This document shows, one piece after another, positions 3,987 to 51,709 of a stretch of DNA of 60,629 bases. The position numbers and the translations under genes are program-made. The stretch covers positions 1-60,629 of the forward strand of contig JASJAT010000051.1 in NCBI GenBank assembly GCA_030066885.1. Direction: 5' to 3'. The stretch's first letter is position 1; each line of letters opens with the position of its first letter. This stretch comes from Arenicellales bacterium. GTDB taxonomy: Bacteria; Pseudomonadota; Gammaproteobacteria; Arenicellales; JAANXG01. The notes under the pieces were generated by a model that did no database searches, was not told where the DNA came from, and was given only the letters and a program-made list of their open reading frames with translations.

Positions 3987-4071
3987 GCGAAAGTGGCGGA
4001 ATTGGCAGACGCGCTGGTTTTAGGTACCAGTGGGGTAACCCGTGGGAGTTCGAGTCTCCCCTTTCGCACCA
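3987..4071 (+). tRNA. tRNA-Leu(TAG), long variable arm.
   Basis: Acceptor GCGAAAG/CTTTCGC, anticodon arm CTGGT-TTTAGGT-ACCAG, variable arm TGGGGTAACCCGT, T-arm GGGAG-TTCGAGT-CTCCC, A-CCA. Confidence 0.9.
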
Positions 4072-4113
4072 TCGCTGTAAACAAATATCATTCCAGACTA
4101 AATAGTGTCTATC

Positions 4114-5421
4114 ATGCAAGTATCCGTTGAAAACCTGGGGACTATCAGCCGCCGCTTAACGGTGGCGGTGCCGGCAGAACAGGTCGAGAAAGAAGTAGCC
4201 GAAAGGCTAAAGCGTCTTGCGAAAAGTGCACGACTACCAGGATTTAGGCCCGGCAAAGCACCGCTTAAGGTCATCGAAAGCAGATTTGGTGGTGATGTGC
4301 TAAATGAGGTTGCCAGCAGTCTGATAGAAAGCTCCTTGCGTGAAGCACTTACCCAGGAGAATTTAATACCGGCGGGTGGGCCTGAGGTGCAGCCCACCAA
4401 GTTGGAAAGAGGTGAAGACCTGGAATATGTCGCGAGTTTCGACATCTTTCCAAAGATCGACAAGCTTGATATTAGCGGCGTCGAAATGGAACGACCCGTC
4501 TACAACGTCGACGACACCGATATCGATGCAACTATAGAAACCATGCGCAAGCAAAGAGTGACTTGGCAGGCCGTGGACCGACCTGCTCAAGATAAAGATC
4601 AGGTAGTCATTAATTTTGTCGGTCACGTCGACGGTGAAGAGTTTGCCGGTAACAAAGCCGAAAACCTTCCCGTAGTTCTAGGTGAAAAAACCTTACTTGA
4701 CGAATTCGAGGAAGGCCTGCGCGGATGTAACGAAGGTGATCAAATCAGTTTAGACGTAAAATTTCCTGATGATTATCGCGGAAAGGATGTCGCAGGCAAA
4801 CTGGCGAAGTTCGATATTACGGTCCGCGCAGTGAACGAACCAGTTTTACCTGAGGTCGATGCCGAGTTCGCAAAATCCTTTGGGATTGAGGATGGCGATC
4901 TTCAAAAAATGCGAGAAGAAGTGGCCAATAACGTAAAACAGGAGATGGAGGAGCGGATACGCAGGGTTGTGCGTGAACGCGTCCTCAACGCGCTGATTGA
5001 GGTCAATGACATAGAACTGCCAACCAAACTGGTGGAAGCTGAAATCGATCATATGATTGAATCGAACAAAGCTATACTGGAAGGGCAGGGTATCGCGGTA
5101 AGAAATGTCGTTCCTGATCGCAGTCGTTTCCAGCAAGACGCCGAAAAAAGAGTTGCACTGGGTCTCATTATGCAGGCTATAGTGAGTGAACACGACTTGA
5201 AGCCGGACGCCGAACGAGTGCGCCAACGCGTCGAACTCCAATCGACCAGCTACGAAGACCCTAAGGCCTTTGTCCAGTGGTACTATTCTGATCGTCAACG
5301 GCTGGCGCAATTAGAGTCGATGATATTGGAGGAACAGGTCATAGAGAAAGTACTGGAAACTGCAGACGCAAAAGATAAAGAAATGAGTTTCCAGGAATTA
5401 ATGGAGTATCAAAGTAGTTAG
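4114..5421 (+). CDS. tig: Trigger factor.
   Basis: MQVSVENLGTISRRLTVAVPAEQVEKEV N-terminus is like E. coli TF. Full-length 435 aa, positioned upstream of clpP-clpX-lon. Confidence 0.93.
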   Translation: MQVSVENLGTISRRLTVAVPAEQVEKEVAERLKRLAKSARLPGFRPGKAPLKVIESRFGGDVLNEVASSLIESSLREALTQENLIPAGGPEVQPTKLERGEDLEYVASFDIFPKIDKLDISGVEMERPVYNVDDTDIDATIETMRKQRVTWQAVDRPAQDKDQVVINFVGHVDGEEFAGNKAENLPVVLGEKTLLDEFEEGLRGCNEGDQISLDVKFPDDYRGKDVAGKLAKFDITVRAVNEPVLPEVDAEFAKSFGIEDGDLQKMREEVANNVKQEMEERIRRVVRERVLNALIEVNDIELPTKLVEAEIDHMIESNKAILEGQGIAVRNVVPDRSRFQQDAEKRVALGLIMQAIVSEHDLKPDAERVRQRVELQSTSYEDPKAFVQWYYSDRQRLAQLESMILEEQVIEKVLETADAKDKEMSFQELMEYQSS

Positions 5422-5501
5422 CAATAATTGTTGACCAAGTTTCTCGGCCAAAATGGTAGAATGGGGTGATGATAAATATTAATCGTAAGAGCACGGAGTA
5501 T

Positions 5502-6128
5502 ATGAACGAAATACACGATAAGCCTTTAACAACCCCACGAGACATCGGCCTGATTCCGATGGTGGTCGAGACCACCGGTCGCGGTGAACGAGCCTTTGAC
5601 ATTTATTCTAGAATGCTCAAGGAGAGGGTCGTTTTTTTAGTCGGCGCGGTCGATGACCATATCGCAAATTTAATCGTGGCCCAGCTTTTGTTTCTTGAAT
5701 CGGAGAACCCGGATAAAGACATTCATTTGTATATAAATAGCCCCGGTGGCGCGGTAACTTCCGGGTTGGCTGTTTACGATACCATGCAGTTCATTAAGCC
5801 TGACGTCAGCACCGTAGTTGTCGGTCAAGCGGCCAGCATGGGGGCGTTGATACTTGCCGGGGGCGGCAAGGGCAAACGGCACGCCCTACCGCATGCGAGA
5901 ATAATGATTCACCAACCGTGGGGAGGGTTCCAGGGCCAAGCGACCGACATCGATATCCATGCTAAGGAGATTCTCAAGATTCGGGAACGTCTGAATCAGA
6001 TCTTGGTCTCACACACAGGGCAGGATATGGACACCATCTCAAGGGATACCGAACGGGACAATTTCATGGGTGGTGAAGAAGCTGTGGCGTACGGATTGAT
6101 CGATACGGTGATTGAAAAGAGAGAATAA
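5502..6128 (+). CDS. clpP: ATP-dependent Clp protease proteolytic subunit.
   Basis: GQAASMGA (catalytic Ser), IMIHQP (His) and ERDNFM motifs. SD ACGGAG lies before the ATG at 5502. The track start at 5466 is also possible. Confidence 0.93.
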
Positions 6129-6211
6129 AGGCTAAAATATAGAGTAAAGGGGTTGCAAAATAGCGCCTAAAATAGCATCTTTCAGGGTTAAACGGGGTCA
6201 AAAATCTATAT

Positions 6212-7495
6212 ATGGCAGAAGACAAACACGACGGTAAGAGCGAAAAACTCCTATATTGCTCGTTTTGTGGCAAGAGCCAGCATGAAGTTCGCAAACTGAT
6301 TGCTGGGCCTTCTGTATTTATATGTGACGAATGTGTCGAGCTATGTAATGACATTATTCGTGAGGAGGTTCAAGAAGGCGCTGAGCCTGCCGAGTCAAAG
6401 AGTAAGTTTCCAAAACCGGAAGATATTAGGAAGATCCTGGATGAATATGTCATTGGTCAGTCTGAGGCCAAAAAGATACTGTCGGTAGCCGTTTACAACC
6501 ATTACAAGCGGATTGAAAACGAAGATAAGGTCAACGATGTTGACATCTCAAAAAGCAACATTCTGTTGATCGGACCCACCGGTTCAGGCAAGACTTTATT
6601 GGCCGAGACCTTGGCACGCCAACTCAATGTACCCTTCACTATTGCCGACGCGACGACATTGACAGAAGCAGGGTATGTTGGTGAGGATGTCGAAAATATT
6701 ATTCAAAAGCTCCTGCAAAAATGTGACTACGATATTGACAAGGCACAAATCGGAATCGTCTACATTGACGAAATTGATAAGATTTCTCGGAAATCAGATA
6801 ACCCCTCCATTACCCGCGATGTATCAGGGGAGGGTGTACAGCAAGCGCTGTTAAAATTAATAGAAGGCACTATAGCATCGGTGCCTCCACAGGGTGGACG
6901 CAAACACCCGCAGCAGGAGTTTCTGCAAGTTGATACCCGTAACATACTGTTCATCTGTGGCGGGGCCTTTTCGGGTCTTGAACGCATCATTCAAGACCGA
7001 TCGGAAAAAAGCAGTATCGGTTTCGGCGCTGATATAAAGAGTAAATCTGACGGGCAAAATGTCGGCGAAGTCCTGCGTGATTTGGAACCCGAAGACTTAA
7101 TCGGATACGGCTTAATCCCAGAATTTGTCGGCCGTTTGCCGATCGTGGCGACCTTGGATGAACTCGACGAGGATGCATTGGTTTCTATTCTGACCGAACC
7201 TAAGAACGCTCTGGTCAAGCAATATCACAAGTTATTGAAGATCGAAGGTGTAGATTTGGAGATTCGTGATGACGCACTGCGAGCTGTTTCGACAAAAGCT
7301 ATGGATAGAAAGACCGGTGCGCGGGGGCTACGCTCGATTTTAGAGAACGCGTTATTGGATACCATGTATGAATTGCCATCTATGGAAGGTGTTAAAAAGG
7401 TAATTGTAGATGCAGGTGTCATCAAGGAAGGCGCCAGACCACTTTATATTTATGAGGAGTCGGAGCCCAAAACAGCGTCTACCACAACGCATTGA
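6212..7495 (+). CDS. clpX: ATP-dependent Clp protease ATP-binding subunit ClpX.
   Basis: Zinc-finger [26 protein letters not shown], Walker [18 protein letters not shown]. Confidence 0.96.
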
Positions 7496-7640
7496 TCGAC
7501 GCTTGACAAGGGATTTTTCCTGGGAGGGGGTGGTACACCGTTGTGAAAATGGGGTCAGTTCCGATCCGCGGCGGGTTAAACAATCATTAAGTGTGTGTGA
7601 GATTACTAAGCATGCTACCGAATGCTGGGAATCTACAGCA

Positions 7641-7669
7641 GTTGAATTTTTATCGATTGACCCCATACT
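7641..7669 (+). promoter_or_regulatory. Sigma-32 (heat-shock) type promoter for lon.
   Basis: GTTGAAT - 13 nt - CCCCATACT matches the E. coli consensus CTTGAAA-N13-17-CCCCATNT. It lies ~47 nt upstream of the lon ATG. Confidence 0.55.
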
Positions 7670-7715
7670 TATATTCAACTATCCCCTCTCCACTATAAAC
7701 TACTGTTGAGCACCC

Positions 7716-10139
7716 ATGGCACAAGGTCTTAATCCCGAAACTGAAGCTTCCGTACCCGTACTTCCCTTACGCGACGTCGTGGTGTTTCCACACATGGTCA
7801 TTCCACTATTTGTTGGTCGCAAAAAGTCCATCAAGGCTCTTGAGCGTTCCATGGAAATCGGGAAGCAGATTCTGTTAGTCGCCCAAAAGAGTGCGGCGGA
7901 GGATGATCCTGGTATTGACGATATCTACCAGGTTGGCACGGTTGCGAGTATTTTGCAGTTGCTTAAGCTGCCTGATGGTACCGTTAAAGTCCTTGTCGAG
8001 GGCGAGAACAGGGTAGCCATCGATCGCTATGTTGAAACAGATGATTGCTTCAGCGCCCTGGTCAGTCATATCGCCGACCCTCAGGTTGACGAGCGGGAAA
8101 TCGAGGTGCTGATGCGCACAGTCCTCAACGAGTTTGATCAGTATGTGAAGCTGAATAACAAAATTCCGCCTGAAATTCTGACCTCTTTAGCGGGCATTGA
8201 GGATCCGGCTCGATTAGCCGATACAATCGCTGCACATCTCAGCCTTAAGATCGAAGACAAGCAGCAGATACTGGAAATGGTCGATACCAAGGAACGGTTG
8301 GAACACATTTTAGGTGTTATGGAATCGGAGATCGACTTGTTACAAGTCGAAAAGCGTATTCGCGGGCGGGTCAAGAAGCAGATGGAGAAAAGCCAGCGTG
8401 AGTACTACCTCAACGAACAGATGAAAGCTATTCAGAAGGAACTGGGAGAAATCGAGGATGCTCCGAACGAACTCGAAGACCTGATGAAGAAGATCGTCGA
8501 GGCTGGCATGCCGAAAGAAGCTCGTGAGAAAGCAGAAGCAGAGCTTAAGAAATTAAAAATGATGTCACCAATGTCGGCGGAGGCCACAGTGGTGCGCAAC
8601 TACATTGACTGGCTGGTTCAGGTACCGTGGAAAAAGCGCAGTAGGGTTCGCAAGGATCTGAGCGCAGCCGAGCAGATACTAGAAGAAGATCATTATGGCT
8701 TGGAAAAAGTCAAAGAGCGGATCCTGGAGTATTTGGCAGTTCAACAACGGATGAAGAAAATCAAAGGTCCGATATTGTGTTTAGTCGGCCCGCCAGGTGT
8801 GGGAAAAACTTCTCTGGGTAAGTCTATCGCCCGCGCGACTAATCGTAAGTTCATTAGGATGTCGCTGGGTGGTGTGCGCGACGAGGCTGAGATACGAGGT
8901 CATCGAAGGACTTACATCGGATCATTGCCAGGAAAGATCGTGCAGAACGTGACCAAGGCTAAAATGCGTAATCCTCTTTTCATGCTAGATGAAGTAGACA
9001 AAATGTCGATGGATTTCCGCGGGGACCCCTCGTCTGCATTGTTAGAAGTACTTGATCCCGAACAGAATCACACCTTTGTGGATCACTACCTGGAAGTGGA
9101 CTACGATTTATCGGAGGTGATGTTCATCGCCACTGCAAATACACTCAATATTCCACCGCCGCTATTGGATCGAATGGAAGTTATTCGTATTTCCGGGTAC
9201 ACGGAAGATGAAAAGATCAACATCGCAACCAAATACCTCGTACCTAAGCAAATCAAGAGCAATGGATTGAAGGATGAGGAGATCTCGATTTCAAAGGGAG
9301 CACTGGTAAACATCGTACGATACTACACGCGCGAAGCGGGTGTGCGTGGGTTAGAACGGGAAATCGCCAAAATATGCCGAAAAGTTGCGAAAGAGCTTCT
9401 GCTGGACGAAAAGCGAACGTCCATCAAGATCAACCCGAAGAATATAGGTAGATACCTCGGTGTCCAACGCTTCCGGTATGGTAAAGCAGAGGAGCAAAAC
9501 CAAGTCGGACAAGTAACTGGCTTGGCTTGGACTGAGGTAGGTGGTGAGCTGCTCACCATTGAGTCCGTGATTTTAACCGGCAAAGGAAAACAAATATATA
9601 CGGGCAAGCTCGGTGACGTGATGCAGGAATCAATCCAAGCGGCTATGAGCGTAGTTCGAAGCAGAGCGGTAAGCTATGGTGTCGATCCGGAGTTTTTTCA
9701 AAAGCATGACTTCCACGTTCATGTTCCCGAAGGGGCCACACCGAAAGATGGGCCCAGTGCGGGTATCGGCATGTGTGTGGCACTGTTATCTATAATCACC
9801 GGGATACCGGTGCGATCTGATGTCGCGATGACCGGTGAGATAACGCTTCGTGGTGAGGTGCTGCCTATTGGCGGTTTAAAGGAGAAGTTATTGGCCGCTC
9901 ACCGTGGTGGCATTACAACAGTCATTATTCCTGATGAGAACGAGAAGGACCTAGCAGAGATCCCAAAAAACATTAAAGGTGATTTAAAGATAAAACCGGC
10001 AAAGTGGATTGATCAAGTTTTGGAAGTTGCTTTAGAGAAAATGCCGGAGCATGGTACGAAGAAAGAAAAAACTGAAAAACAAGAATCCTCTAAATCAAAG
10101 GAAGATGACGCATCGTCTGATTCAGTGATTACACATTAA
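7716..10139 (+). CDS. lon: Lon protease (LonA).
   Basis: N-terminal [20 protein letters not shown], Walker [10 protein letters not shown], catalytic PKDGPSAG...K. 807 aa. Confidence 0.97.
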
Positions 10140-10283
10140 TATATATGCCGTACCGAAGTTGCTCGTTAGAATTAAACAGCAGTTTGATTAGATTGATGTA
10201 GGTCATTGTTTTATTTTGAGAAAGAAAAATCTATCGCGAAAAGCGATTGAACAAATTCAGATTTTTTTTTCCGATAATGTTCC

Positions 10284-10311
10284 TTGACACCACTTTTCGC
10301 CCTGGTATAAG
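10284..10311 (+). promoter_or_regulatory. Sigma-70-like promoter upstream of hupB.
   Basis: TTGACA - 16 nt - TATAAG, about 108 nt upstream of the hupB GTG start. Confidence 0.45.
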
Positions 10312-10418
10312 GTGAACCACGGAGGAACGGTGCTCTAAGAGCACTAGTCAGTTGCCTTCTTCTTTTCCAAAAATAATTTTCACCGCTCCATTATTAATCA
10401 ACAAAGGGGACTATAACC

Positions 10419-10691
10419 GTGAACAAAGCGGAACTCATAGATACGGTCGCCAACAAGGCTGGCCTTTCCAAATCAGACGCTGCTAGTGCGGTGGACGCAG
10501 TTTTCAGCAGTATCACTAACACGTTAGCAAACGGTGATTCAGTAACATTGGTTGGGTTCGGCACCTTTGCGGTGACCGAGCGAGCTGCACGCACGGGCCG
10601 TAATCCGCGTACCGGTGAAGCGATCACCATTCCTGCGTCTAAGAGCTCGAAGTTCAAGGCTGGTAAAGCGTTAAAGGATGCCCTAAACTAG
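10419..10691 (+). CDS. hupB: DNA-binding protein HU-beta.
   Basis: [11 protein letters not shown]...[22 protein letters not shown]...IPASK is a canonical HU sequence. GTG start with a GGGGA SD. Confidence 0.95.
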
Positions 10692-10702
10692 CGCACCTTT
10701 TT

Positions 10703-10778
10703 GGGTGCTTAGCTCAGTTGGGAGAGCGTCGCCCTTACAAGGCGAAGGTCGGCGGTTCAAGCCCGTCAGCACCCACCA
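10703..10778 (+). tRNA. tRNA-Val(TAC).
   Basis: Acceptor GGGTGCT/AGCACCC, anticodon arm TCGCC-CTTACAA-GGCGA, T-loop TTCAAGC, A-CCA. 76 nt. Confidence 0.92.
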
Positions 10779-10796
10779 GCACGAGCGTGTCGACCA

Positions 10797-10873
10797 GGAG
10801 CGGTAGTTCAGTTGGTTAGAATACCGGCCTGTCACGCCGGGGGTCGCGGGTTCGAGTCCCGTCCGCTCCGCCA
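10797..10873 (+). tRNA. tRNA-Asp(GTC).
   Basis: Acceptor GGAGCGG/CCGCTCC, anticodon arm CCGGC-CTGTCAC-GCCGG, T-arm GCGGG-TTCGAGT-CCCGT, G-CCA. 77 nt. Confidence 0.92.
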
Positions 10874-10892
10874 CACGATAGTACGATAACAT

Positions 10893-10914
10893 AAGGGCGA
10901 GTTTTCTCGCCCTT
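10893..10914 (+). terminator. Hairpin terminator after the hupB-tRNA-Val-tRNA-Asp unit.
   Basis: AAGGGCGAG-TTTT-CTCGCCCTT followed by TCCATT (weak T tract). Confidence 0.45.
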
Positions 10915-10951
10915 TCCATTATGTCTTGCCGAAAAACTTTTTTTAGTACTG

Positions 10952-12862
10952 ATGCTCACTGAGATTAAAGACCGCGCCACCGGCTGGATTGCGTGGATCA
11001 TCGTTATCATCATTTCCATACCTTTCGCCCTCTGGGGTGTAAATGAGTACTTTGCTGGTGGTTCGTCACTAAACGTCGCGGTAGTCGACGGCCAAGAAAT
11101 AGACCAGCAAACTTACCGCTATGCACTCGAGGAACGCCGAAGCATGGCGCGTCGTTTGTTAGGGAACCAATTTGACCCGGACTCGACCAACACCATCGAA
11201 TTTAGAATGGCGGTTTTGGATGACCTAGTTCTGCGACAACTCTTGCAGGAGAACGCTGAGGATGCAGGTTTCAGGGTGAGTGATGAACAACTCGCAGCGT
11301 TTATAAGAACCACCCCACAATTCCAGCGCGAAGGTCAGTTCGATTCAGCGGCTTATCAACAAGCAGTGCAAGCACTGGGTTACACAAAGGTAGGGTTCGA
11401 GACTTACCTTCGTCAGCAGAACATGCTGCAACAAATGCAGGATGGACTCGAAAGATCATCATTCATTACGGCGCGAGATGAAGAGAGCTTGTTGACGTTG
11501 GCACAGGAAAGGCGAGTGTTTGACTACGCAATGATAGAGCCAGAGGCATTTGAATCAGAGATTAGTATCTCTGAAGAGGAAATTAAAAATTACTATAACG
11601 AAAACCCGGAGCTCTACCGCTCACCGGAGATGATCAAAGTTGAATACGTTCAATTGGCCGTTGCTGATCTCGCTGAAGATGTAGAGATTACAGAAGAGGA
11701 TATAAAACGTTACTACGAAGAGAACAAAGATCTTTACAAGACCCGCGAGCAACGCAAAGCCAGCCACATCCTTCTTAAATTAGATGAGGATGCAGATGAG
11801 GCGACTGCGCAAGAGGCGCTAAGAAAAGCGCAATCATTGGCGCAAAAAGCACGGGATGGAGAAGATTTCGCGGAACTTGCCAAGCAGCATTCCCAGGACC
11901 CCGGTTCCGCGGCGCTTGGTGGGGACCTTGGATTGGTCGAAGCCGGTGTCATGGTTAAACCATTTGAAGATAGGCTGTTTGACATGCGGGAAGGAGAGGT
12001 CAGTGATCCGGTGAAGACGCGTTATGGCTACCACATCATAAAGCTCACTGAATTGATTGCAGAACAAGGTCAAGATCTGTCTGAAGTTTATAATGAGATC
12101 GAGGATGAGGTACGCCAAAGGCTCGCGGAAGCGTCGTTTGTTGATCGTGCAGAGACCTTCAAGAACCTTGTATTCGAGCAACCGGAGTCGTTACAGCCGG
12201 TAGCCGAAGAACTTGAGCTGGATCTCGAGGCTTCTGAATGGTTCTCGCAGGGGTCGGGTACGGGAATCGCGGAAAGCGAGAAAGTAAGAGATAGTGCGTT
12301 TAGTGATGACGTCTATATTGAGAATCTGAATAGTGAAGCTATCGAACTTGACATCAACACACTGGTTGCTTTGCGAAAAATTGAAACACAGGAAGCTAGC
12401 CTAAAACCTCTCGATGAAGTGGCGAATCAAATAGAGCAGACTTTGAAACAACAAAAGGCACGAGAGCAATCCCAGAACAAAGGAAGCGAGCTCTTAGCCA
12501 AGTTGAACGAAAGCGGCGACTGGGATTCGTTACTGGCGGAGCACGGGCTCGAGTCGCAACAGGCCGCCCAATTCCGATTGGGGTCTGACTCAGATCTGCC
12601 TCTTCGGCTTTCCACCGAAGTATTTCGAGCCGCAACCGCTACTCAAGAACCGGTATATGGTGGTGTTGTTCTTGTTGACGGTAGTTACACGTTGTTTCGC
12701 CTCACCGAGGTTGAGAAGGGGGTTCCGGCTAACGCGGATGACAACACCAAACAAGCGGTGGCTCAGTCACTCACCAGCCGGCGTGGTGCAGACTATTTTT
12801 TAAGTTACCAGCGAGGATTGAGAGAGTCTGCGGATATCGAAATCTTCGAAGAAAACATGTAA
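10952..12862 (+). CDS. ppiD: Periplasmic chaperone / peptidyl-prolyl isomerase PpiD.
   Basis: N-terminal anchor WIAWIIVIIISIPFALWGV and a parvulin segment ASHILL...GGDLG...GYHIIKL. Conserved position after hupB. Confidence 0.9.
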   Translation: MLTEIKDRATGWIAWIIVIIISIPFALWGVNEYFAGGSSLNVAVVDGQEIDQQTYRYALEERRSMARRLLGNQFDPDSTNTIEFRMAVLDDLVLRQLLQENAEDAGFRVSDEQLAAFIRTTPQFQREGQFDSAAYQQAVQALGYTKVGFETYLRQQNMLQQMQDGLERSSFITARDEESLLTLAQERRVFDYAMIEPEAFESEISISEEEIKNYYNENPELYRSPEMIKVEYVQLAVADLAEDVEITEEDIKRYYEENKDLYKTREQRKASHILLKLDEDADEATAQEALRKAQSLAQKARDGEDFAELAKQHSQDPGSAALGGDLGLVEAGVMVKPFEDRLFDMREGEVSDPVKTRYGYHIIKLTELIAEQGQDLSEVYNEIEDEVRQRLAEASFVDRAETFKNLVFEQPESLQPVAEELELDLEASEWFSQGSGTGIAESEKVRDSAFSDDVYIENLNSEAIELDINTLVALRKIETQEASLKPLDEVANQIEQTLKQQKAREQSQNKGSELLAKLNESGDWDSLLAEHGLESQQAAQFRLGSDSDLPLRLSTEVFRAATATQEPVYGGVVLVDGSYTLFRLTEVEKGVPANADDNTKQAVAQSLTSRRGADYFLSYQRGLRESADIEIFEENM

Positions 12863-45763: not shown

Positions 45764-45991
45764 ATGATGAGTATTATCAATAGAAGATCTGGTATAGATC
45801 GTCGCCACGGATTCGATCGAAGACGGATCCACGACCTAGCCTATTTTGAGCGAGGTGGTGTTGAGCGACGAAGCGGTAAAGAAAGACGTAAAACACCTGA
45901 ACTGCGGGCAGGGTGGATCCGGGTCAGCCCTTGGAGCAGTGTGAAGCAAGACATTATTTTAGAACCGGAGGAGTTTTTTCCCGTGCCCTAA
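45764..45991 (+). CDS. Arg-rich mini-protein with reiterated (S)GxDRR/ERR motifs (75 aa).
   Basis: MMSIINRRSGIDRRHGFDRRRIHDLAYFERGGVERRSGKERRKTPELRAGW... No family recognised. Divergent from the PilZ gene. Confidence 0.4.
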   Translation: MMSIINRRSGIDRRHGFDRRRIHDLAYFERGGVERRSGKERRKTPELRAGWIRVSPWSSVKQDIILEPEEFFPVP

Positions 45992-46020
45992 CGAGCACCG
46001 GAATGGACCCCGGAAGTATT

Positions 46021-46309
46021 TGGCGCCCTCGGCAGGATTCGAACCTGCGACCTATCGCTTCTTACCACTTTAGCTTTCGCTAGTCATTGCTCGTTCGTGG
46101 TCTGGACTTTACCTTCACCCTAAGCAACGCTATTAGGTGCTGCCCGTCAAGTCTCTACACCTTCCTGCTTATTCAGGCTTGGCTCGGTATTGCCACCGTC
46201 GTTACACGCTGAGGTTTCACCGAATTTGAGCAGATTCACGCAAGAAGTTTCCTTCTTTGTGCCCATTTCAAATAGGAGGCGATTGCTCTATCCCCTGAGC
46301 TACGAGGGC
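46021..46309 (-). tRNA. tRNA-Arg(CCT) gene interrupted by a group I intron. Exons are 46309-46274 and 46060-46021.
   Basis: 5' exon is GCCCTCG-TA-GCTC-AGGGGATA-GAGC-A-ATCGC-CT-CCT. 3' exon is AA-GCGAT-AGGTC-GCAGG-TTCGAAT-CCTGC-CGAGGGC-G-CCA. Joined, they give a perfect 76-nt cloverleaf with all stems Watson-Crick. Confidence 0.85.
46061..46273 (-). ncRNA. Group I intron (IC3-like, tRNA-type), 213 nt, inserted after U36 of the anticodon.
   Basis: P1 places a U-G wobble at the 5' splice site (CCU|AU...AUGGG), and the terminal G precedes the 3' exon. There is a GAAA-capped hairpin AAGAAGGAAACUUCUU. Core strings CAAAUUCGGUGAAACCU, CCGAGCCAAGC, GAAGGUGUAGAGACUUGACGG and AGCGAAAGCU closely match the Azoarcus tRNA-Ile and Anabaena tRNA-Leu introns as I remember them. 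Confidence 0.8.
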
Positions 46310-46320
46310 GTTAAAGAAGA

Positions 46321-48864
46321 TTATATCAGCTCGGTCACGCTACTGTTGCCGGTACCGACTATGGGGATGCCAGTCAATTTCGAGGTGACCAAGGTGATGG
46401 CCCTAAGGTCTTCCGGTTCGATGTTGTACAGGACAGTTTTACCAGTGCAGCGGGCCATCATGGAAGCTTCACCGATATTGGCTTTGATCAGATTGATAAC
46501 AGCCGTACTTCTATCGTCTTCGTTTAAGTCGCTATTGAACACCAAACTTTCATTTTGAATTTCGCCGCCAGCTGCAATTCCAATGGCAGTACCTTGAACG
46601 ACTGCAACTGTGCCCAGCCCCAATATTTTGGCAGCGTCGGTGCCGGATCGAATACCTCCAAACCAGACCAGATCAATCTCCTCCTCTCTGTCCAGCTTCC
46701 TCAGTAGAGCGATCGCATCCCGTAACAAAGAAAAATCAGGCGCACCTTTCAGCTCCGCCCAAGGAGTGGTGATTGATCCGGAGCCATCCAGTAGCAACAC
46801 ATCAAGTGCTTGATCGAGTCCGTTTTGAACTGCCTTAGGTACGTCCATTGGATCAGAAACATAAATTCCTACGAGTTGACCACTATACGGACGTGCGGCA
46901 TTTATACTGGCCGGCAGATCGTGGGCAGAGTACAAAACGACCTCGGCCTTATGGCTGGGTGGAGTTGCTCGAGTAAGCAGTTGCCACCAGCGCCCATCAT
47001 CGGATAGGGGTTGTTGCCCAACGTAGGGGCTGTCCACCACCTTGAGTCCTTCGGCGACCGCCTGCCTGACTTCCACCGGTGTGCTGTCAAAACCCGTAAC
47101 CAGGAGAGGGTGTGAAATAGGTAGCCCTCGACCAACTTCAGTATCTACTTTGCATGCTTCCCGATAAGGATCAATTACCAAGCGAGACAGGTTCGCCGGT
47201 AGGAAAACAATGTCATCTAGACTGGCCGGTTTGTTATCAGGCACGGGATTTTCTCGAACTTCTAGCAAACAAGATAACATGGCGTGGTTTTTAGCTGCAT
47301 CAAGTGGATTAGTACGCGCCATTGAAAAAATGTGTTCGCGTTGTTGCACCGAGTAATCGGCAGAACCAGTTTCGGCGTCACACCGATAGCATCGAGCGGC
47401 TTCCTTAAGGGCAGTTTCACGACTGTAGGTTTCTTCGATCTCCGGGAACTGGATCGGATTGTCACCCAGCCCGAAGAATTTCGGATGTTGTTCCGGCAAT
47501 AATTCCCATTGCAAGTCCTGCGCCACTGGTACTCGGCGGGTGCGATAAGGGGTACGGTAAGGTAAAGGATGGTCATTACCTTCGAGGTAATGCTTGATAT
47601 AGTACGCTGCACGCTGCCCGTGGTGCATCGCCATCACAATGGTTGAACCTCCAAATGCTCCGTCACCTGCCGCGAATACTTTCGGATCTTTAGTGCGCAT
47701 GGTTTCCCATTCCGTTTTGACTCGATCCTTCAGCATCATGCCAAGATGATCTAACTCGTCGTTTTCGCCTTGTTGTCCGACCGCAGCGATCACCATGCCA
47801 CACCCGATTGAATGTTCACTTCCAGCGATCGGCACGGGCCGGCGACGTCCGTCTTCATCAGGTTCACCCAGATCAGTTCGCACGCACTTCAGCGACAATC
47901 CCTTGCCGTTTGCCTCAACCGCCACTTGCTGCGTGTTGTATAAGAATTCAATGCCTTCATCGACGGCACCCTTAAGTTCAATGGCACGCGCGGGTATTTC
48001 TTTCGGGCCTCTTCGATAAACCACAATAACGTGCTCACAATCGGGCAGGCGTTTGGCCACACGGCAGGCATCCATAGCGACGTCGCCACCCCCGACGACC
48101 ACCACGGTATGAGGTAGTTGTGGACGCTCACCGGCATTCACCCGACGAAGAAATCCCACCCCATCGACAACACGCTCGTCCTGTTCGCCCGGGACACCCA
48201 TTGCCTTACCCCACCAGGCGCCTATACAGAGTAAAACGGCGTCGTGCCTTTCCTTTAGTTCGTTGAGTTTGATATCCCGGCCTAAGGCTGTATTTAAATG
48301 TATGTCCAAGCCGGGACATTTCTGGTGTAAACGATCGATATCTTCGTCGATTATGCCCGGCGGCAAACGAAAGGCCGGTATGCCCCAGACCATCATGCCA
48401 CCTGGCCGGTCGGACATTTCATACACATCGACTTTGAAACCCGCTGTACTGAGGTCGTGGGCTGCAACTAGACCGGCCGGACCGGCACCAACAATGCCCA
48501 CCGACTGTTTACGTGTAACGGGACACGCATCCGGGGTCCAGGTCGCACCGAGTTTGTCCATGACATAACGCTTGAGATTACGGATCTGAACTGGACCGTC
48601 GCTGTCCGTTCGACGGCACGCCGGTTCGCAAGGTGCATCACATACCCGTCCACAAATGGAACTGAAAGGGTTGGTTGCAGTAATCGCTTCAAAAGCCTGT
48701 TCAAACTTTTGTTCCCAGATATAAGCAATATAGGAAGGGGCATCTGTTCCCACTGGACAGGCGACCTGACACGGTGCCGGCACGTAGTGACCCTGCCCCG
48801 TATCATCGACATACTCGCTCGGTGCATCCGGCATCAAGATTCTATTGATGTCATAGACTGCCAT
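46321..48864 (-). CDS. GltD-like NAD(P)H-dependent Fe-S flavoprotein fused to a degenerate GltB-FMN-type TIM-barrel domain (847 aa).
   Basis: N-terminal half has Cys clusters (PCQVACPVGTD..., CGRVCDAPCEPAC), two dinucleotide folds (VGIVGAGPAGL; VVVVGGGDVAMD) and FAAGD. The C-terminal 299 aa parallel MgsC-type FMN domains (LDDIVFLPANLSRLVI..., LLLDGSGS, FGGIRSGTDAAKILGLG) but lack their conserved catalytic strings. Confidence 0.75.
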   Translation of the reverse strand: MAVYDINRILMPDAPSEYVDDTGQGHYVPAPCQVACPVGTDAPSYIAYIWEQKFEQAFEAITATNPFSSICGRVCDAPCEPACRRTDSDGPVQIRNLKRYVMDKLGATWTPDACPVTRKQSVGIVGAGPAGLVAAHDLSTAGFKVDVYEMSDRPGGMMVWGIPAFRLPPGIIDEDIDRLHQKCPGLDIHLNTALGRDIKLNELKERHDAVLLCIGAWWGKAMGVPGEQDERVVDGVGFLRRVNAGERPQLPHTVVVVGGGDVAMDACRVAKRLPDCEHVIVVYRRGPKEIPARAIELKGAVDEGIEFLYNTQQVAVEANGKGLSLKCVRTDLGEPDEDGRRRPVPIAGSEHSIGCGMVIAAVGQQGENDELDHLGMMLKDRVKTEWETMRTKDPKVFAAGDGAFGGSTIVMAMHHGQRAAYYIKHYLEGNDHPLPYRTPYRTRRVPVAQDLQWELLPEQHPKFFGLGDNPIQFPEIEETYSRETALKEAARCYRCDAETGSADYSVQQREHIFSMARTNPLDAAKNHAMLSCLLEVRENPVPDNKPASLDDIVFLPANLSRLVIDPYREACKVDTEVGRGLPISHPLLVTGFDSTPVEVRQAVAEGLKVVDSPYVGQQPLSDDGRWWQLLTRATPPSHKAEVVLYSAHDLPASINAARPYSGQLVGIYVSDPMDVPKAVQNGLDQALDVLLLDGSGSITTPWAELKGAPDFSLLRDAIALLRKLDREEEIDLVWFGGIRSGTDAAKILGLGTVAVVQGTAIGIAAGGEIQNESLVFNSDLNEDDRSTAVINLIKANIGEASMMARCTGKTVLYNIEPEDLRAITLVTSKLTGIPIVGTGNSSVTELI

Positions 48865-50816
48865 TAGCTTGCCAGCACTTCAGACTGTGATTCGCTTCCT
48901 ACTGGACGATAGGGCAGTCCGGTGATAGCAGCTGCTTCCGGCGTCAGTGCAACCAGGTCACCACGATTGAGCTGTCTTACATCGTCGTAACCTAAGGCGT
49001 GTGTGATCGCCGCAATCTGCCAGCGTACAGACTCAAAGAAACGGTGGATGTTTTGTGCTTCGATTTCTGGTTTATAACGCTTTTCGTGGTTGGGATCCTG
49101 GGTGGCTATCCCGGTAACACATTGACCTACGTGGCACTGCATGCACGCAATACAGCCTCCGGCGATGATGACCGAGGTGCCAAAACCGATTGCGTCCGCC
49201 CCGAGGCAAAGCCCCTTGATTGCATCGACACCGTCCCGCATGCCGCCCATTAGCACAATCTGCGTATCCTGACGGCGTCCAATTTCCGCCAAAGCTTCCT
49301 CGGCTTCAATAATCGCCGCCAATGTTGGAATACCAACAAAATCGATGACTTCCGAACTGCCGGCCCCGGTCGAGCCCTGCATTCCGTCTAGCTCTATAAA
49401 ATCGAATCCATCCTTGACCGCGATCTTAATATCGTCGCGTACCCGTCCGGCGCCCAACTTTACGCTCACCGGAAGACGATAACCGGTGGCTTCGCGGAAC
49501 TCTTCAACTTTAATGACGAGATCATCAGCACCCAGGATATCCGGATGGCGAGACGGTGACCGGAGGTCGATACCGGCCGGGATACCTCGAATATCGGCCA
49601 GCTCTTTGGTGACTTTCTTGGCCATCAGTTGCCCCCCTAGCCCGGGTTTCGCACCTTGTGAAATATATATCTCGAGCCCATCGGCCCGTTTCATATCATG
49701 GATATTCCATCCCAGCCTGCCGCCCAGGCACTGGAAAATAAGTTGTTTGGCAGCGCTCCGTTGAGCATCGCTCATACCCCCTTCGCCGGTGTTTTCAGCG
49801 ATGTCCGACATCGCCGAAGCCAGGCCTATGGCGTGCTTGGTAGACCGGCTGAGCGCACCATAGCTCATCGGCGATACCATTACCGGCATGCTGAGTTTAA
49901 GTGGGTTGGCGCCGTTCAGCCCGCCAATCTCGGTGTACATGTGGACCTTCGATATCACATCGGCTGAATCGTTTATTCTGGATAGGTCTTTCGCGAACGC
50001 TAGGTCGGACAGATGGGGGAGTGCACGGGCAGTACCGTAGCCACGAATGCGGTAACGGCCGCTTTGGGATTTTATGTGTATGTCTTCTTGTACTTTGGGA
50101 TTCCAGTAAGGGGAAGCACCAGAAAAAGTAAAGAACGGAATACTGCGCATCTGTCTTTCCGGTGATCCGTAACGCAATTTTTGGCCTGCGTTGACGATCT
50201 TCTGAAAATTGCCTTTAAACGGGATTTCGTAGCGGTCGAGAAATTCACGCACGCTATCGTGCTCGGCCTCGGTCATGTCCGTCAGCTTGGCATCGGAACC
50301 GAGGTCCTGAACTTTTCCGCCAACAAAGATTTCACCGCCTGTCATATCCTCCCCGACACGCTCCCCGGAATCGCCAAGGATTATGATTCTGCCGCCATAC
50401 AGCATATAGCCGGCCATGAAGTTCGCGTTACCTGCACACAATAAAGTCCCCGCCTTCATAACCTGTCCTGCGCGCGACCCCATATTGCCCTTTATGATGA
50501 TCTCGGCCCCACGGATACCGATGGCGGGAATAGCCCCGGCGTTGCCACCGACGACGACCGTCCCGCTGTAAATGTTATCTCCCAACCCCCACCCAACGTT
50601 GTTGTCGATATAGAAAGTCGCCTGATCGGTGAGACCCGCACAGAAATAACCTGCGGATCCTTTTACGTGAACGCTTATGGGCGAGGTCAACCCGACACCG
50701 ATATGGTGCCGGGCATCGGGGTTGATTACTTCTACGTCTTCGCCTGCTTCGCCATAGTTACGGATTTGTTCGTTGGCATCGCGGACGGGTATTTGCGCTA
50801 GATCGATCGTGACCAC
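48864..50816 (-). CDS. Fusion of a GXGXG (GltB C-terminal beta-helix) domain and an FMN-binding glutamate-synthase-type domain (650 aa).
   Basis: N-terminus has the reiterated G-x-G pattern (GSAGYFCAG...GGNAGAIPAIG...GNMGSRAG...GDSGERVG). C-terminus has SPMSYGALS, GEGG, ISQGAKPGLGG, LDGMQGSTGAG, GGMRDG and CIACMQCHVGQCVTG. TAATG overlap with the downstream gene. Confidence 0.85.
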   Translation of the reverse strand: MVTIDLAQIPVRDANEQIRNYGEAGEDVEVINPDARHHIGVGLTSPISVHVKGSAGYFCAGLTDQATFYIDNNVGWGLGDNIYSGTVVVGGNAGAIPAIGIRGAEIIIKGNMGSRAGQVMKAGTLLCAGNANFMAGYMLYGGRIIILGDSGERVGEDMTGGEIFVGGKVQDLGSDAKLTDMTEAEHDSVREFLDRYEIPFKGNFQKIVNAGQKLRYGSPERQMRSIPFFTFSGASPYWNPKVQEDIHIKSQSGRYRIRGYGTARALPHLSDLAFAKDLSRINDSADVISKVHMYTEIGGLNGANPLKLSMPVMVSPMSYGALSRSTKHAIGLASAMSDIAENTGEGGMSDAQRSAAKQLIFQCLGGRLGWNIHDMKRADGLEIYISQGAKPGLGGQLMAKKVTKELADIRGIPAGIDLRSPSRHPDILGADDLVIKVEEFREATGYRLPVSVKLGAGRVRDDIKIAVKDGFDFIELDGMQGSTGAGSSEVIDFVGIPTLAAIIEAEEALAEIGRRQDTQIVLMGGMRDGVDAIKGLCLGADAIGFGTSVIIAGGCIACMQCHVGQCVTGIATQDPNHEKRYKPEIEAQNIHRFFESVRWQIAAITHALGYDDVRQLNRGDLVALTPEAAAITGLPYRPVGSESQSEVLAS

Positions 50817-51709
50817 GTGGCATAAGTTCCCGGTAAGGGTTCTTTAGTCTGCAGTGCTTGACCTGGAAACAATCTGTTGAGCGACACCTCTTCAGAAGCG
50901 ACCGCTACCAAGTCCTCGTTCTCGTACATCACCATGGGTTTAGCCGCTAATCGATCTTTGGCATAACCGATTTCATTCGCAGTAGACACCAAGAAAGAAA
51001 AAGTTCCATCGAGATCGTCTATGGATGTTCGCAAGGCTGCCTTCAATGTTATCCCTTGTGACAGCTTATCGGCGAGATACACTGCGATGAGTTCACTGTC
51101 GTTGTCGGTGGTGAACTCAAAGCCTCGCCGTTCCAATCTTCGCCGCATCTTCCAGTAATTGGTGATCTGTCCATTGTGCACAATAGCGATGTCGGCAAAC
51201 CCTGTTGCCCAGAATGGATGGGATGCCTCCGGCTTTACATCGGATTCCGTGGCCAGACGAACATGGCCGAGCCCGTGACTGCCTTGAAATTTGTTGACTT
51301 CATACCGCTTGTCGACATCGTCAGCACTTCCGACGTCCTTTACGATTTCTAAACTGGCACCAATAGATATTACTTTTGCGGCGTGTTCGATAGCGTAGGA
51401 GAACTTTTGTAAGTTGCCGGTGAAATCAACAATCGCCCGGTAGTTGTTACCGATTACTTCTTCTTCAACTATGGTCGCGTGGTGTTCGGCTAGGGCTTGG
51501 CGAATGCGTTGGATCGAATCATCGGTTTCTTCGTCTTCCCCCACGAAAAATCTCAGCCGGAGCTGACCGGTGTGGGCTGCTTCATATAGTGCAAATCCAG
51601 TGGAATCCGGTCCGCGATGCTGACAACCATCGAGCATATTGATCAACGCCTTTCCGGTTGTGAGCTCTGGTGTGTCGTGTTTGAAGAGAATTCCTGCGAT
51701 ACCACACAT
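50798..51709 (-). CDS. Class II (Ntn) glutamine amidotransferase, GltB N-terminal-domain-like.
   Basis: MCGIAG N-terminal nucleophile Cys, HRGPDSTGFAL, GHVRLATES, VHNGQITNY. Paralog of the plus-strand gene at 57739. Confidence 0.88.
   Translation of the reverse strand: MCGIAGILFKHDTPELTTGKALINMLDGCQHRGPDSTGFALYEAAHTGQLRLRFFVGEDEETDDSIQRIRQALAEHHATIVEEEVIGNNYRAIVDFTGNLQKFSYAIEHAAKVISIGASLEIVKDVGSADDVDKRYEVNKFQGSHGLGHVRLATESDVKPEASHPFWATGFADIAIVHNGQITNYWKMRRRLERRGFEFTTDNDSELIAVYLADKLSQGITLKAALRTSIDDLDGTFSFLVSTANEIGYAKDRLAAKPMVMYENEDLVAVASEEVSLNRLFPGQALQTKEPLPGTYATWSRSI

Follow-up and report, generated by a model that had tools for sequence, protein, structure and literature searches.

A tRNA-Arg(CCU) gene containing an ORF-less group I intron of the 'Arg.5Ug' class in a gammaproteobacterium-like genomic context

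The window, by which we mean the whole 60,629-nt stretch of DNA that was analysed, very probably carries a functional tRNA-Arg(CCU) gene into which a group I intron of the IC3 'Arg.5Ug' class, 213 nt long and ORF-less, is inserted between U36 and A37. The two halves of the gene can be read directly in the sequence and, once joined, form a clean 76-nt tRNA-Arg(CCU) on the minus strand. The gene is made up of the following parts:

46309-46274, minus strand: 5' exon GCCCTCGTAGCTCAGGGGATAGAGCAATCGCCTCCT, 36 nt, with the acceptor 5' strand, the D arm, the anticodon stem 5' strand and the anticodon CCU
46273-46061, minus strand: ORF-less group I intron (IC3, 'Arg.5Ug' class), 213 nt, beginning ATTTGAAATGGG and ending GGTAAG
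46060-46021, minus strand: 3' exon AAGCGATAGG...GAGGGCGCCA, 40 nt, as called by ARAGORN, with A37, A38, the anticodon stem 3' strand, the variable loop, the T arm, the acceptor 3' strand and an encoded CCA

The 5' exon was called by ARAGORN on both the spliced and the genomic sequence. The spliced 76-mer was reported as tRNA-Arg(cct), with a regular cloverleaf of 7/4/5/5-bp stems and an encoded CCA, and the genomic stretch, with introns allowed, as tRNA-Arg(cct) i(37,213). These calls agree base for base with the preliminary description of two tRNA halves lying 213 nt apart on the minus strand and joining to a 76-nt tRNA-Arg(CCU). Insertion of the intron right after U36, the final base of the 5' exon and the -1 nucleotide of the 5' splice site, had also been proposed there; it is confirmed by ARAGORN and by the intron boundaries of relatives, among which introns starting with G, U or C make the boundary after U36 unambiguous. 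The labels 'Arg(acg)' and 'Leu(aag)' that ARAGORN gave to some relatives were rejected as products of misplaced intron boundaries, all of these genes reading ...GCCUCCU up to the splice site, i.e. tRNA-Arg(CCU). Across 32 homologous genes the acceptor and anticodon stems pair across the intron with compensatory changes, and the T stem and acceptor stem covary. The arginine identity element C35 is present, and a second, A20, would be present as well if the 8-nt D loop AGGGGAUA is numbered as we have done. ARAGORN at its default settings called no gene at the locus and an Rfam scan at the gathering threshold was silent there, as the preliminary description had expected of standard callers; we do not count these silent scans as negative, because a permissive Rfam scan and intron-aware ARAGORN found the gene.

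Identification of the intron was based on two covariance models. A custom core model, built solely from 13 published bacterial tRNA-intron sequences, gave a single match on both strands of the 60.6-kb window, at 46104..46234 on the minus strand (119.2 bits, E 3.5e-26), covering model positions 1-136 of 136. Such a match is far beyond chance, and the sequence identifies the intron as a true group I (IC3) ribozyme gene. The preliminary description had named a search with Rfam RF00028 (Intron_gpI) as the main structural test. That search returned a full-length match (model 1-253 of 253, E 4.1e-11), but its score of 47.5 bits falls 2.5 bits under the curated gathering score of 50; the seven relatives that gave an RF00028 match likewise all score below 50 (34-48 bits). 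The motifs present are the GAAA-capped P2, CAAATTCGGTGAAACCT, CCGAGCCAAGC, GAAGGTGTAGAGACTTGACGG, GGTAAAGTCCA and AGCGAAAGCT, each 0-2 bases off the published Azoarcus tRNA-Ile intron (seed Aol6.Ile2.5Ug), so that the near-identity of the core to this intron, proposed in the preliminary description, holds. A homing endonuclease within the intron was ruled out, the longest sense-strand ORF being 39 aa. A phage origin of this copy was also ruled out, since no phage or IMG/VR match is a tRNA-Arg(CCU) intron; what was found there consists of cores of a related type within other tRNAs or of partial similarities only.

The secondary structure proposed for the intron was compared across the 32 homologous genes, in which the proposed pairs form in 98.4% of cells, as against 30-41% in slid controls, and compensatory changes are seen in 37 of 80 pairs, as against at most 14 in the controls. 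The elements of the structure are:

46262..46276, minus strand: P1 hairpin, in which exon CCU and intron AUU pair with intron AAUGGG (the internal guide), with a UGA loop
46237..46261, minus strand: P2 stem-loop, with a GAAA tetraloop cap, a CAC/GUG base and an AAGAAG/CUUCUU stem
46228..46233, minus strand: P3 5' strand CUGCUC, partner of 46140..46145
46164..46224, minus strand: P4-P5-P6 domain, defined by pairing within the family and the published seeds
46149..46155, minus strand: P7 5' strand (G, bulged A, GACUU), part of GUAGAGACUU, partner of 46104..46109
46140..46145, minus strand: P3 3' strand GGGCAG, partner of the P3 5' strand
46116..46139, minus strand: P8 stem-loop, with a CACC..GGUG base and a variable distal stem
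46104..46109, minus strand: P7 3' strand AAGUCC, placed by its pairing with the P7 5' strand
46064..46101, minus strand: P9 domain, with outer stem ACCAC/GUGGU, P9a and the P9b hairpin UAGC-GAAA-GCUA
46061, minus strand: terminal guanosine (omega G), gene position 249, the final intron nucleotide at the 3' splice site

In P1 the pairing of exon CCU with intron GGG had been described earlier and stands: its C-G, C-G and U-G pairs, the last being the splice-site wobble U36-G46, are invariant in 32/32 homologues, and double-sided changes occur at the two pairs on the intron side, in 7 and 13 sequences respectively. The GAAA-capped P2 hairpin is likewise present, with double-sided changes in six of its nine pairs and a loop that is invariant or nearly so among the 32 homologues. 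The core that the preliminary description required to be foldable does fold when the published seeds and the window are taken together: P3 is paired in 100% of cells with covariation at 4/6 pairs, P7 in 100% with covariation at 3/6, and the two helices together make up the core pseudoknot. By analogy with the literature on the Azoarcus structure, P7 would carry the guanosine-binding site. In the same alignment of seeds and window, covariation is also seen in P4 (UUCGGUG/UACCGAG; 95.9% paired) and P6 (CCUG/CAGG; 94.6% paired), and P8 is fully paired with covariation at three of four pairs. P5 (CC..GG with a distal stem) is supported by pairing in the 32 homologues, and the J6/6a segment reads GCCAAGC. 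Among these homologues the P9 domain has double-sided changes in 9 of 12 pairs and an invariant P9b GAAA tetraloop; the omega G, the last intron base as first proposed, is kept in all 32 while the two bases before it vary. No P10 pairing of the guide to the 3' exon is evident; introns of tRNA genes may rely instead on the anticodon stem to keep the exons joined (Zaug et al. 1993, as cited in PMC3984707).

The 'Arg.5Ug' class was defined by Williams (2020; bioRxiv 10.1101/2020.01.27.920355), and the intron shares its defining traits: a tRNA-Arg host, an insertion that splits the anticodon loop between nt 36 and nt 37, a U as the -1 nucleotide and a G as the omega nucleotide. Its periphery is that of IC3, with short P2 and P9 carrying GNRA tetraloops, no ORF, and no P2.1 or P5abc extension, for which the 213-nt length leaves no room; for the IC3 label we rely on Williams (2020) and GISSD rather than on a run of a subgroup classifier. 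Among 15 published seeds the best global match is Bbo3.Arg.5Ug, at 83% of aligned columns or 73% when counted over the length of the longer sequence, but seed identity alone cannot separate classes because the whole set of IC3 tRNA seeds is similar to the window's intron (62-73%), and the class assignment rests on host gene and insertion site. The element is thus of a type already described, the classical Arg.5Ug, of which the present copy is a further member, and it reveals no new mechanism.

The tRNA-Arg(CCU) intron was originally discovered in Agrobacterium tumefaciens (Reinhold-Hurek & Shub 1992; Paquin et al. 1999, as cited in PMC7717549), and its counterpart in Bartonella bacilliformis, BbgpI, splices both in vivo and in vitro (PMC7717549). 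Alphaproteobacterial Arg.5Ug introns and that of the window have in common the tRNA-Arg(CCU) host gene, insertion after U36, the U-G wobble, the terminal G, the CCU/GGG pairing in P1, the IC3 core and the lack of an ORF. They differ in the peripheral helices P2, P5, P6, P8 and P9a, and at the end of P7, where the window has a U-A pair (ACUU/AAGU) and the two published Arg.5Ug seeds have G-C (ACUG/CAGU); in addition, the window's host is gammaproteobacterium-like and its exons belong to a separate gamma type. The tRNA-Ile(CAU) intron of Azoarcus sp. BH72 / A. olearius (IC3, 'Ile2.5Ug') is the crystallised model ribozyme. Like the window's intron it follows nt 36 of the anticodon loop and has GAAA-capped P2 and P9; P3, P4, P6, P7 and P8 of the two align in register, and the core strings CAAAUUCGG(U/C)GAAACCU, CCGAGCCAAGC and GAAGGUGUAGAGACU(U/A)GACGG are near-identical. 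It lies, however, in another tRNA, its guide pairing is CAU/GUG rather than CCU/GGG, and its P9 is a shorter, single hairpin. Its P5 has the canonical 11-nt receptor CCUAAG...UAUGG, whereas in the window's family this position is taken by CCUCAG...GGUGG, which in our reading may dock the L9 tetraloop. The cyanobacterial and plastid tRNA-Leu(UAA) ('Leu.3Ug') and tRNA-fMet ('fMet.2Ug') introns, whose seeds contribute to the 119-bit custom model, share the IC3 subgroup and the conserved core but occupy other tRNAs at other anticodon-loop positions (after nt 34 or nt 33). A precedent for gammaproteobacterial tRNA group I introns is provided by the Beggiatoaceae, in which putative introns of this kind were described in tRNA-Arg(UCU) and tRNA-Leu(UAA), tRNAs that were also missing from automatic annotation (MacGregor et al. 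2013, as cited in PMC4853749). The arginine isoacceptor there is UCU and not CCU, the cited account gives neither structure nor subgroup, and the likeness is one of description.

Directly upstream of the tRNA gene lies a nitrogen-assimilation-type operon with GATase, Glu_synthase and a gltD-like protein of 847 aa. The upstream ORF ends at 46321 and the tRNA starts at 46309, so that the spacer after the stop codon is 11 nt, one less than the 12 nt given in the preliminary description. No promoter- or terminator-like site was seen beside the gene, a lone promoter-like site well downstream being within chance expectation, and with so short a spacer it is plausible that the tRNA is co-transcribed with the upstream gene. 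We hypothesize that the gene would be transcribed, possibly by read-through from this glutamate-synthase-like operon, and that the intron RNA would fold into P1-P9 with exon CCU paired to the GGG guide in P1. A free guanosine nucleotide in P7 would then attack the phosphate after U36, at the U-G wobble, and the freed U36 3'-OH would attack after the terminal G, joining the exons into a 76-nt tRNA that RNase P and the usual enzymes would mature and that would read AGG codons. By analogy with the Agrobacterium, Azoarcus and Bartonella homologues, this copy presumably self-splices and its tRNA is used; another AGG reader, either an uninterrupted tRNA-Arg(CCU) or a tRNA-Arg(UCU), may be present elsewhere in the genome, beyond the window.

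An alternative, which we consider unlikely, is that the ribozyme is real but needs a protein cofactor or particular cellular conditions, so that the supply of tRNA-Arg(CCU) would be conditional and not constitutive. Many group I introns do need protein help in vivo (discussion in PMC7717549; PMC3984707), the gene lies directly behind a nitrogen-assimilation-type operon, and regulation would have an effect because AGG is not rare, making up 11% of arginine codons in the long ORFs of the window. However, the small IC3 tRNA introns of Azoarcus and Bartonella self-splice efficiently without protein, according to the accounts in PMC7717549 and PMC13168695, and the tRNA of relatives lies in unrelated neighbourhoods, which leaves no conserved operon linkage. 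It is also possible to imagine a decaying relic, in which the intron is catalytically dead, the split gene is a pseudo-tRNA and AGG is read by another tRNA elsewhere. This would fit with the low identity of the peripheral helices to any relative (just 71-79%), with the Rfam score under the cut-off and with the analogy on which splicing of this copy is argued; intron-less alleles of nearly the same tRNA occur, so the intron is dispensable. Yet all core positions that are invariant in the 32 homologues and the published seeds are intact in the window, every helix pairs in this copy, the changes by which it departs from relatives fall within stems and have compensating partners, its exons are completely conserved in two other genomes and AGG is a frequent codon here. 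We therefore regard a relic as very improbable, and favour a functional, interrupted tRNA gene.

A gammaproteobacterial context for this gene, as first proposed from synteny, is reasonable. The genes tig, clpX, lon, ppiD, valS and pepA were identified in the window, clpX-lon is colinear with E. coli (68.5% nucleotide identity), and the exons share 100% identity with their counterparts in L004 and L030, two MAGs labelled Gammaproteobacteria, 98.7% with those of Arenicellales (L010 and L014) and only 73-79% with alphaproteobacterial exons. An exact-match scan of genomes with a 29-nt core, which gives counts that are lower bounds, recovered the same core in the same tRNA-Arg(CCU) at the same site in at least 23 species-representative genomes labelled Gammaproteobacteria or gamma families, so that the earlier view of such a copy as uncommon in this class was overstated. 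Both tRNA and insertion site agree in 33 of the 34 genome matches; the same core also recovered alphaproteobacterial members (L001, L009 and L019). Intron-less alleles of nearly the same tRNA, a survey for which had been suggested in the preliminary description, were found in 52 metagenome contigs. None of the window's flanking proteins was found in the flanks of L001-L034, nor was a tRNA neighbourhood shared with L043-L094 found; because neighbourhoods differ among relatives, linkage of the tRNA to the gltD-like gene is not conserved. An assembly or binning artefact, in which a tRNA-intron segment from another organism such as an alphaproteobacterium was joined to a gammaproteobacterial contig, might be suspected from the flanks without synteny to any related locus, from the probable metagenome-type assembly and from the fact that no fetched genome with the intron exceeds about 87% identity over the whole gene, but is extremely improbable given the gammaproteobacterial type of the exons, the location of the gene 11 nt from the upstream ORF within continuous sequence that has no composition break, and the independent presence of the arrangement in 23 gamma-labelled genomes.

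One idea, for which we see very little likelihood, is that the intron is no neutral passenger and the ribozyme is a post-transcriptional gate on translation: with operon read-through, and with splicing that depends on a free guanosine nucleotide and on correct folding, the amount of AGG-decoding tRNA would follow the nitrogen or nucleotide status of the cell. More likely than such a gate is a long-established intron lineage, passed on mostly by vertical descent across several orders of marine Gammaproteobacteria, which would have gone unremarked because the Rfam cut-off and default tRNA finders both miss the intron. Alphaproteobacteria are the textbook hosts of the tRNA-Arg(CCU) intron, and its host range is now widened to a broad set of Gammaproteobacteria. 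For annotation, the consequence is that default tRNA and Rfam runs miss both the intron and the tRNA, much as tRNAscan-SE 2.0 missed the Bartonella homologue until the intron was removed (PMC7717549). Genomes of these lineages will accordingly seem to be without an AGG-specific tRNA-Arg, and inferences on tRNA complement and codon usage may be distorted for marine Arenicellales, Acidiferrobacteraceae, SUP05 and related MAGs. With both intron-bearing and intron-less alleles of almost the same tRNA in existence, there is useful material for studying how ORF-less group I introns are gained, lost and kept.

A tRNA-Arg(CCU) gene is interrupted at the locus, between nucleotides 36 and 37, by an ORF-less IC3 group I intron, and minus-strand 45900-46450 matches exactly the split exons and intron of the preliminary description. 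The parts of the sequence, located by script, are as follows.

46309..46274, minus strand: 5' exon, 36 nt
46273..46061, minus strand: intron, 213 nt
46060..46021, minus strand: 3' exon, 40 nt, encoded CCA included

ARAGORN reads the joined exons, a 76-mer, as tRNA-Arg(cct) with a regular cloverleaf and, once introns are permitted, calls tRNA-Arg(cct) i(37,213) on the genomic stretch. As had been predicted, standard callers miss the gene: default ARAGORN on the whole window returns just three other tRNAs (Leu, Val and Asp), and Rfam at gathering thresholds returns the same three, with the split gene absent. The intron and the 3' exon both begin with A, so the splice boundary is ambiguous by one base in the window alone; those relatives whose introns begin with G, U or C place it after U36. 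The longest sense-strand ORF inside the intron is 39 aa.

In a permissive Rfam scan of 45950-46400, the full RF00028 (Intron_gpI) model (positions 1-253) matched at 47.5 bits (E 4.1e-11), 2.5 bits below the curated gathering score of 50. When eight related loci were scanned, seven matched at 34-48 bits, all below 50, and the eighth, in Roseospirillum parvum (L019), gave no match at E 0.001 or better; the whole intron family is therefore sub-threshold in Rfam, and the RF00028 cut-off constitutes a systematic annotation blind spot for it. The L019 intron is 288 nt long, with long P5 and P6 insertions. The low scores agree with a remark by Williams (bioRxiv 10.1101/2020.01.27.920355) that the Rfam seed then lacked bacterial sequences. 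An independent covariance model was built from 13 published bacterial tRNA-intron seeds in the Williams supplementary alignment, trimmed to the P3-P8/P7' core and aligned, with the window and its relatives excluded. Searched against both strands of the whole window, this core model gave one real match, at 46104..46234 on the minus strand (119.2 bits, E 3.5e-26, model positions 1-136 of 136), the next best having an E of 2.8. The search regarded beforehand as decisive was thus positive.

Comparative evidence for the structure came from a family alignment of 32 complete genes, in which P7 was added to the RNAalifold consensus as a pseudoknot before pairs were counted. All four tRNA stems (acceptor, D, anticodon and T) closed across the intron in the RNAalifold consensus, which also contained intron helices P1, P2, P3, P4, P5, P6, P8, P9, P9a and P9b. 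Standard pairs occupied 98.4 % of cells, against 30-41 % when partners were slid by one to three columns; double-sided changes were seen in 37 of 80 pairs (7-14 in slid controls), and the covariation score was 0.275 (at most 0.06 in slid controls). None of 500 shuffles reached the observed pairing, double-change or covariation values. Several features proved invariant throughout the 32 genes: the U36-G wobble and two C-G pairs by which exon CCU pairs with guide GGG in P1, the terminal G, and the GAAA tetraloops capping P2 and P9b, although the stems below them covary. The invariant positions are exactly the features required by group I chemistry. P3 and P7 also showed no variation within this set, in part because the search seed covers both, and an alignment of the window with the published seeds was therefore used to test them. 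In that alignment all cells were paired in P3 (four of six pairs covarying), in P7 including its bulged A (three of six) and in P8, with 94.6 % paired in P6 and 95.9 % in P4; P5 is supported by the family pair count.

The Williams preprint recognizes Leu.3Ug, Arg.5Ug, fMet.2Ug and Ile2.5Ug as the classical tRNA intron types of bacteria, all four of them IC3. By host gene, insertion site, U(-1)/omega-G and sequence the window element is an Arg.5Ug intron, its nearest published seed being Bbo3.Arg.5Ug. The similarity to the Azoarcus intron noted in the preliminary description holds on comparison, the core strings differing by 0-2 bases from the published sequence. The two introns differ in guide sequence, in P9, which is longer and branched in the window intron, and in P5, where CCUCAG...GGUGG is conserved in the window family (46196-46214, minus strand, with equivalent positions in the related loci L002-L034) at the place occupied in Azoarcus by CCUAAG...UAUGG, the canonical 11-nt GAAA-tetraloop receptor. 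From its position, the family motif is a candidate variant receptor that would bind the invariant GAAA loop of L9.

An exact scan for the 29-nt core GAAGGTGTAGAGACTTGACGGGCAGCACC in one genome per GTDB species found 34 loci, a lower bound since an exact 29-mer was required. Intron-aware ARAGORN and inspection placed the element in tRNA-Arg(CCU), immediately after CCU, in 33 of the 34, two of these being partial at a contig end; ARAGORN labels of Arg-acg and Leu-aag in a few relatives were rejected as misplaced intron boundaries. At the remaining locus, in an alphaproteobacterial Magnetospira sp. MAG (L025, JANQGL010000202.1, 1511-1539 region), a homologous intron lies in tRNA-Leu(UAA), split as ...GGACUU/intron/AAAAUCC between U34 and A35, a site classically tied to cyanobacteria and plastids. 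Gammaproteobacteria or gamma families account for 23 of the 34 labels (Arenicellales including Poriferihabitaceae, Acidiferrobacteraceae and Candidatus Thioglobus), seven are labelled 'Proteobacteria' only, yet have gamma-type exons, and four are Alphaproteobacteria. Rarity was therefore overestimated in the preliminary description, the element being common in several marine gammaproteobacterial orders. Exon and intron distances correlate strongly over all gene pairs (Spearman 0.85; the pairs are non-independent, making a P value meaningless), which fits an intron mostly travelling with its host gene.

The intron is nevertheless optional within the window's tRNA lineage, since near-identical uninterrupted tRNA-Arg(CCU) genes occur in metagenomes. 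A scan for the spliced junction found intron-less alleles, with the same anticodon arm, on 52 metagenome contigs. The nearest (L047, L088 and L078, the last a 2.67-Mb contig, WLWD01000008.1) match the window's spliced tRNA at all but 2 of its 76 positions and are candidates for close intron-less relatives; all three share its short D loop, GGGGAUAG.

The same core is also present in eight large, putatively viral IMG/VR contigs (L035-L042, 65-543 kb; e.g. L035:10500-10528 and L039:2476-2504). There it interrupts other tRNA genes, with Leu-UAA, Lys-UUU-like and Gln types suggested by ARAGORN -i at putative splice sites, and clusters of intact tRNAs adjoin the interrupted genes. A 2014 review (PMC3984707) placed every phage group I intron then known in protein genes, despite the many phage tRNA genes.

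A gammaproteobacterial host is well supported by gene content (tig, clpX, lon, ppiD, valS and pepA), by the clpX-lon segment, which is colinear with that of E. coli at 68.5 % nucleotide identity, and by the tRNA exons, which match two MAGs labelled Gammaproteobacteria (L004, L030) at 100 % and Arenicellales L010 and L014 at 98.7 %, against just 73-79 % for alphaproteobacterial exons; the context originally proposed thus stands. The enterobacterial gene order is tig-clpP-clpX-lon-hupB-ppiD, which window 3987-12862 (tRNA-Leu, tig, clpX, lon, tRNA-Val, tRNA-Asp, ppiD) resembles except for the two tRNA genes between lon and ppiD. Among the genomes fetched, no gene more than about 87 % identical to the window's split tRNA gene was found, and none of the related loci shares its neighbourhood; exact-sequence look-ups with the products of two window ORFs returned no record. 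Upstream of the tRNA, on the same strand, lie three ORFs.

50798-51709, minus strand: class-II glutamine amidotransferase ORF
48864-50816, minus strand: Glu_synthase/GXGXG protein ORF
46321-48864, minus strand: 847-aa 'gltD-like' ORF, directly upstream of the tRNA

The N-terminal half of the 847-aa product (residues ~30-500) matches glutamate-synthase small-subunit-type families, Fer4_20 and Pyr_redox_2, with below-cut-off matches to NCBIfam PRK12771/PRK12814; no Pfam or NCBIfam family was matched by its C-terminal ~350 aa. The three ORFs have the look of a split glutamate synthase operon of the archaeal type, plus this C-terminal extension. As the tRNA starts 11 nt past the stop codon of this ORF and no promoter-like or terminator-like site was found alongside, co-transcription is plausible.

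What the analysis establishes is the anatomy of the gene, its conservation and its place in the intron family. Splicing of the window intron would be expected to follow the standard group I pathway, with the Azoarcus intron (PMC13168695) as structural model and catalysis by this copy predicted from its homologues. P1 would present the U-G wobble, exogenous guanosine bound at P7 would cleave after U36, the terminal G would take its place in the binding site, and the exon 3'-OH would attack the 3' splice site, the exons presumably being held together by the tRNA's own anticodon stem. AGG use suggests a real demand for the product: the codon occurs 94 times among the 14,632 codons of 31 long window ORFs and makes up 11 % of their Arg codons, figures that are approximate as the ORFs were called mechanically.

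The Arg.5Ug class was described first from Agrobacterium and then from other Alphaproteobacteria (Paquin et al., 1999, cited in PMC7717549). We found no explicit account of the class in Gammaproteobacteria in the searchable literature, a negative that is qualified by the introns in tRNA-Arg(UCU) and tRNA-Leu(UAA) reported from Beggiatoaceae (PMC4853749) and by the Williams survey, which covers thousands of tRNA introns, tallied at phylum level. The finding is real and its original interpretation correct, and the element belongs to an already known intron type; its practical value lies in a systematically unannotated tRNA, and the documented host range of the intron class is modestly widened.
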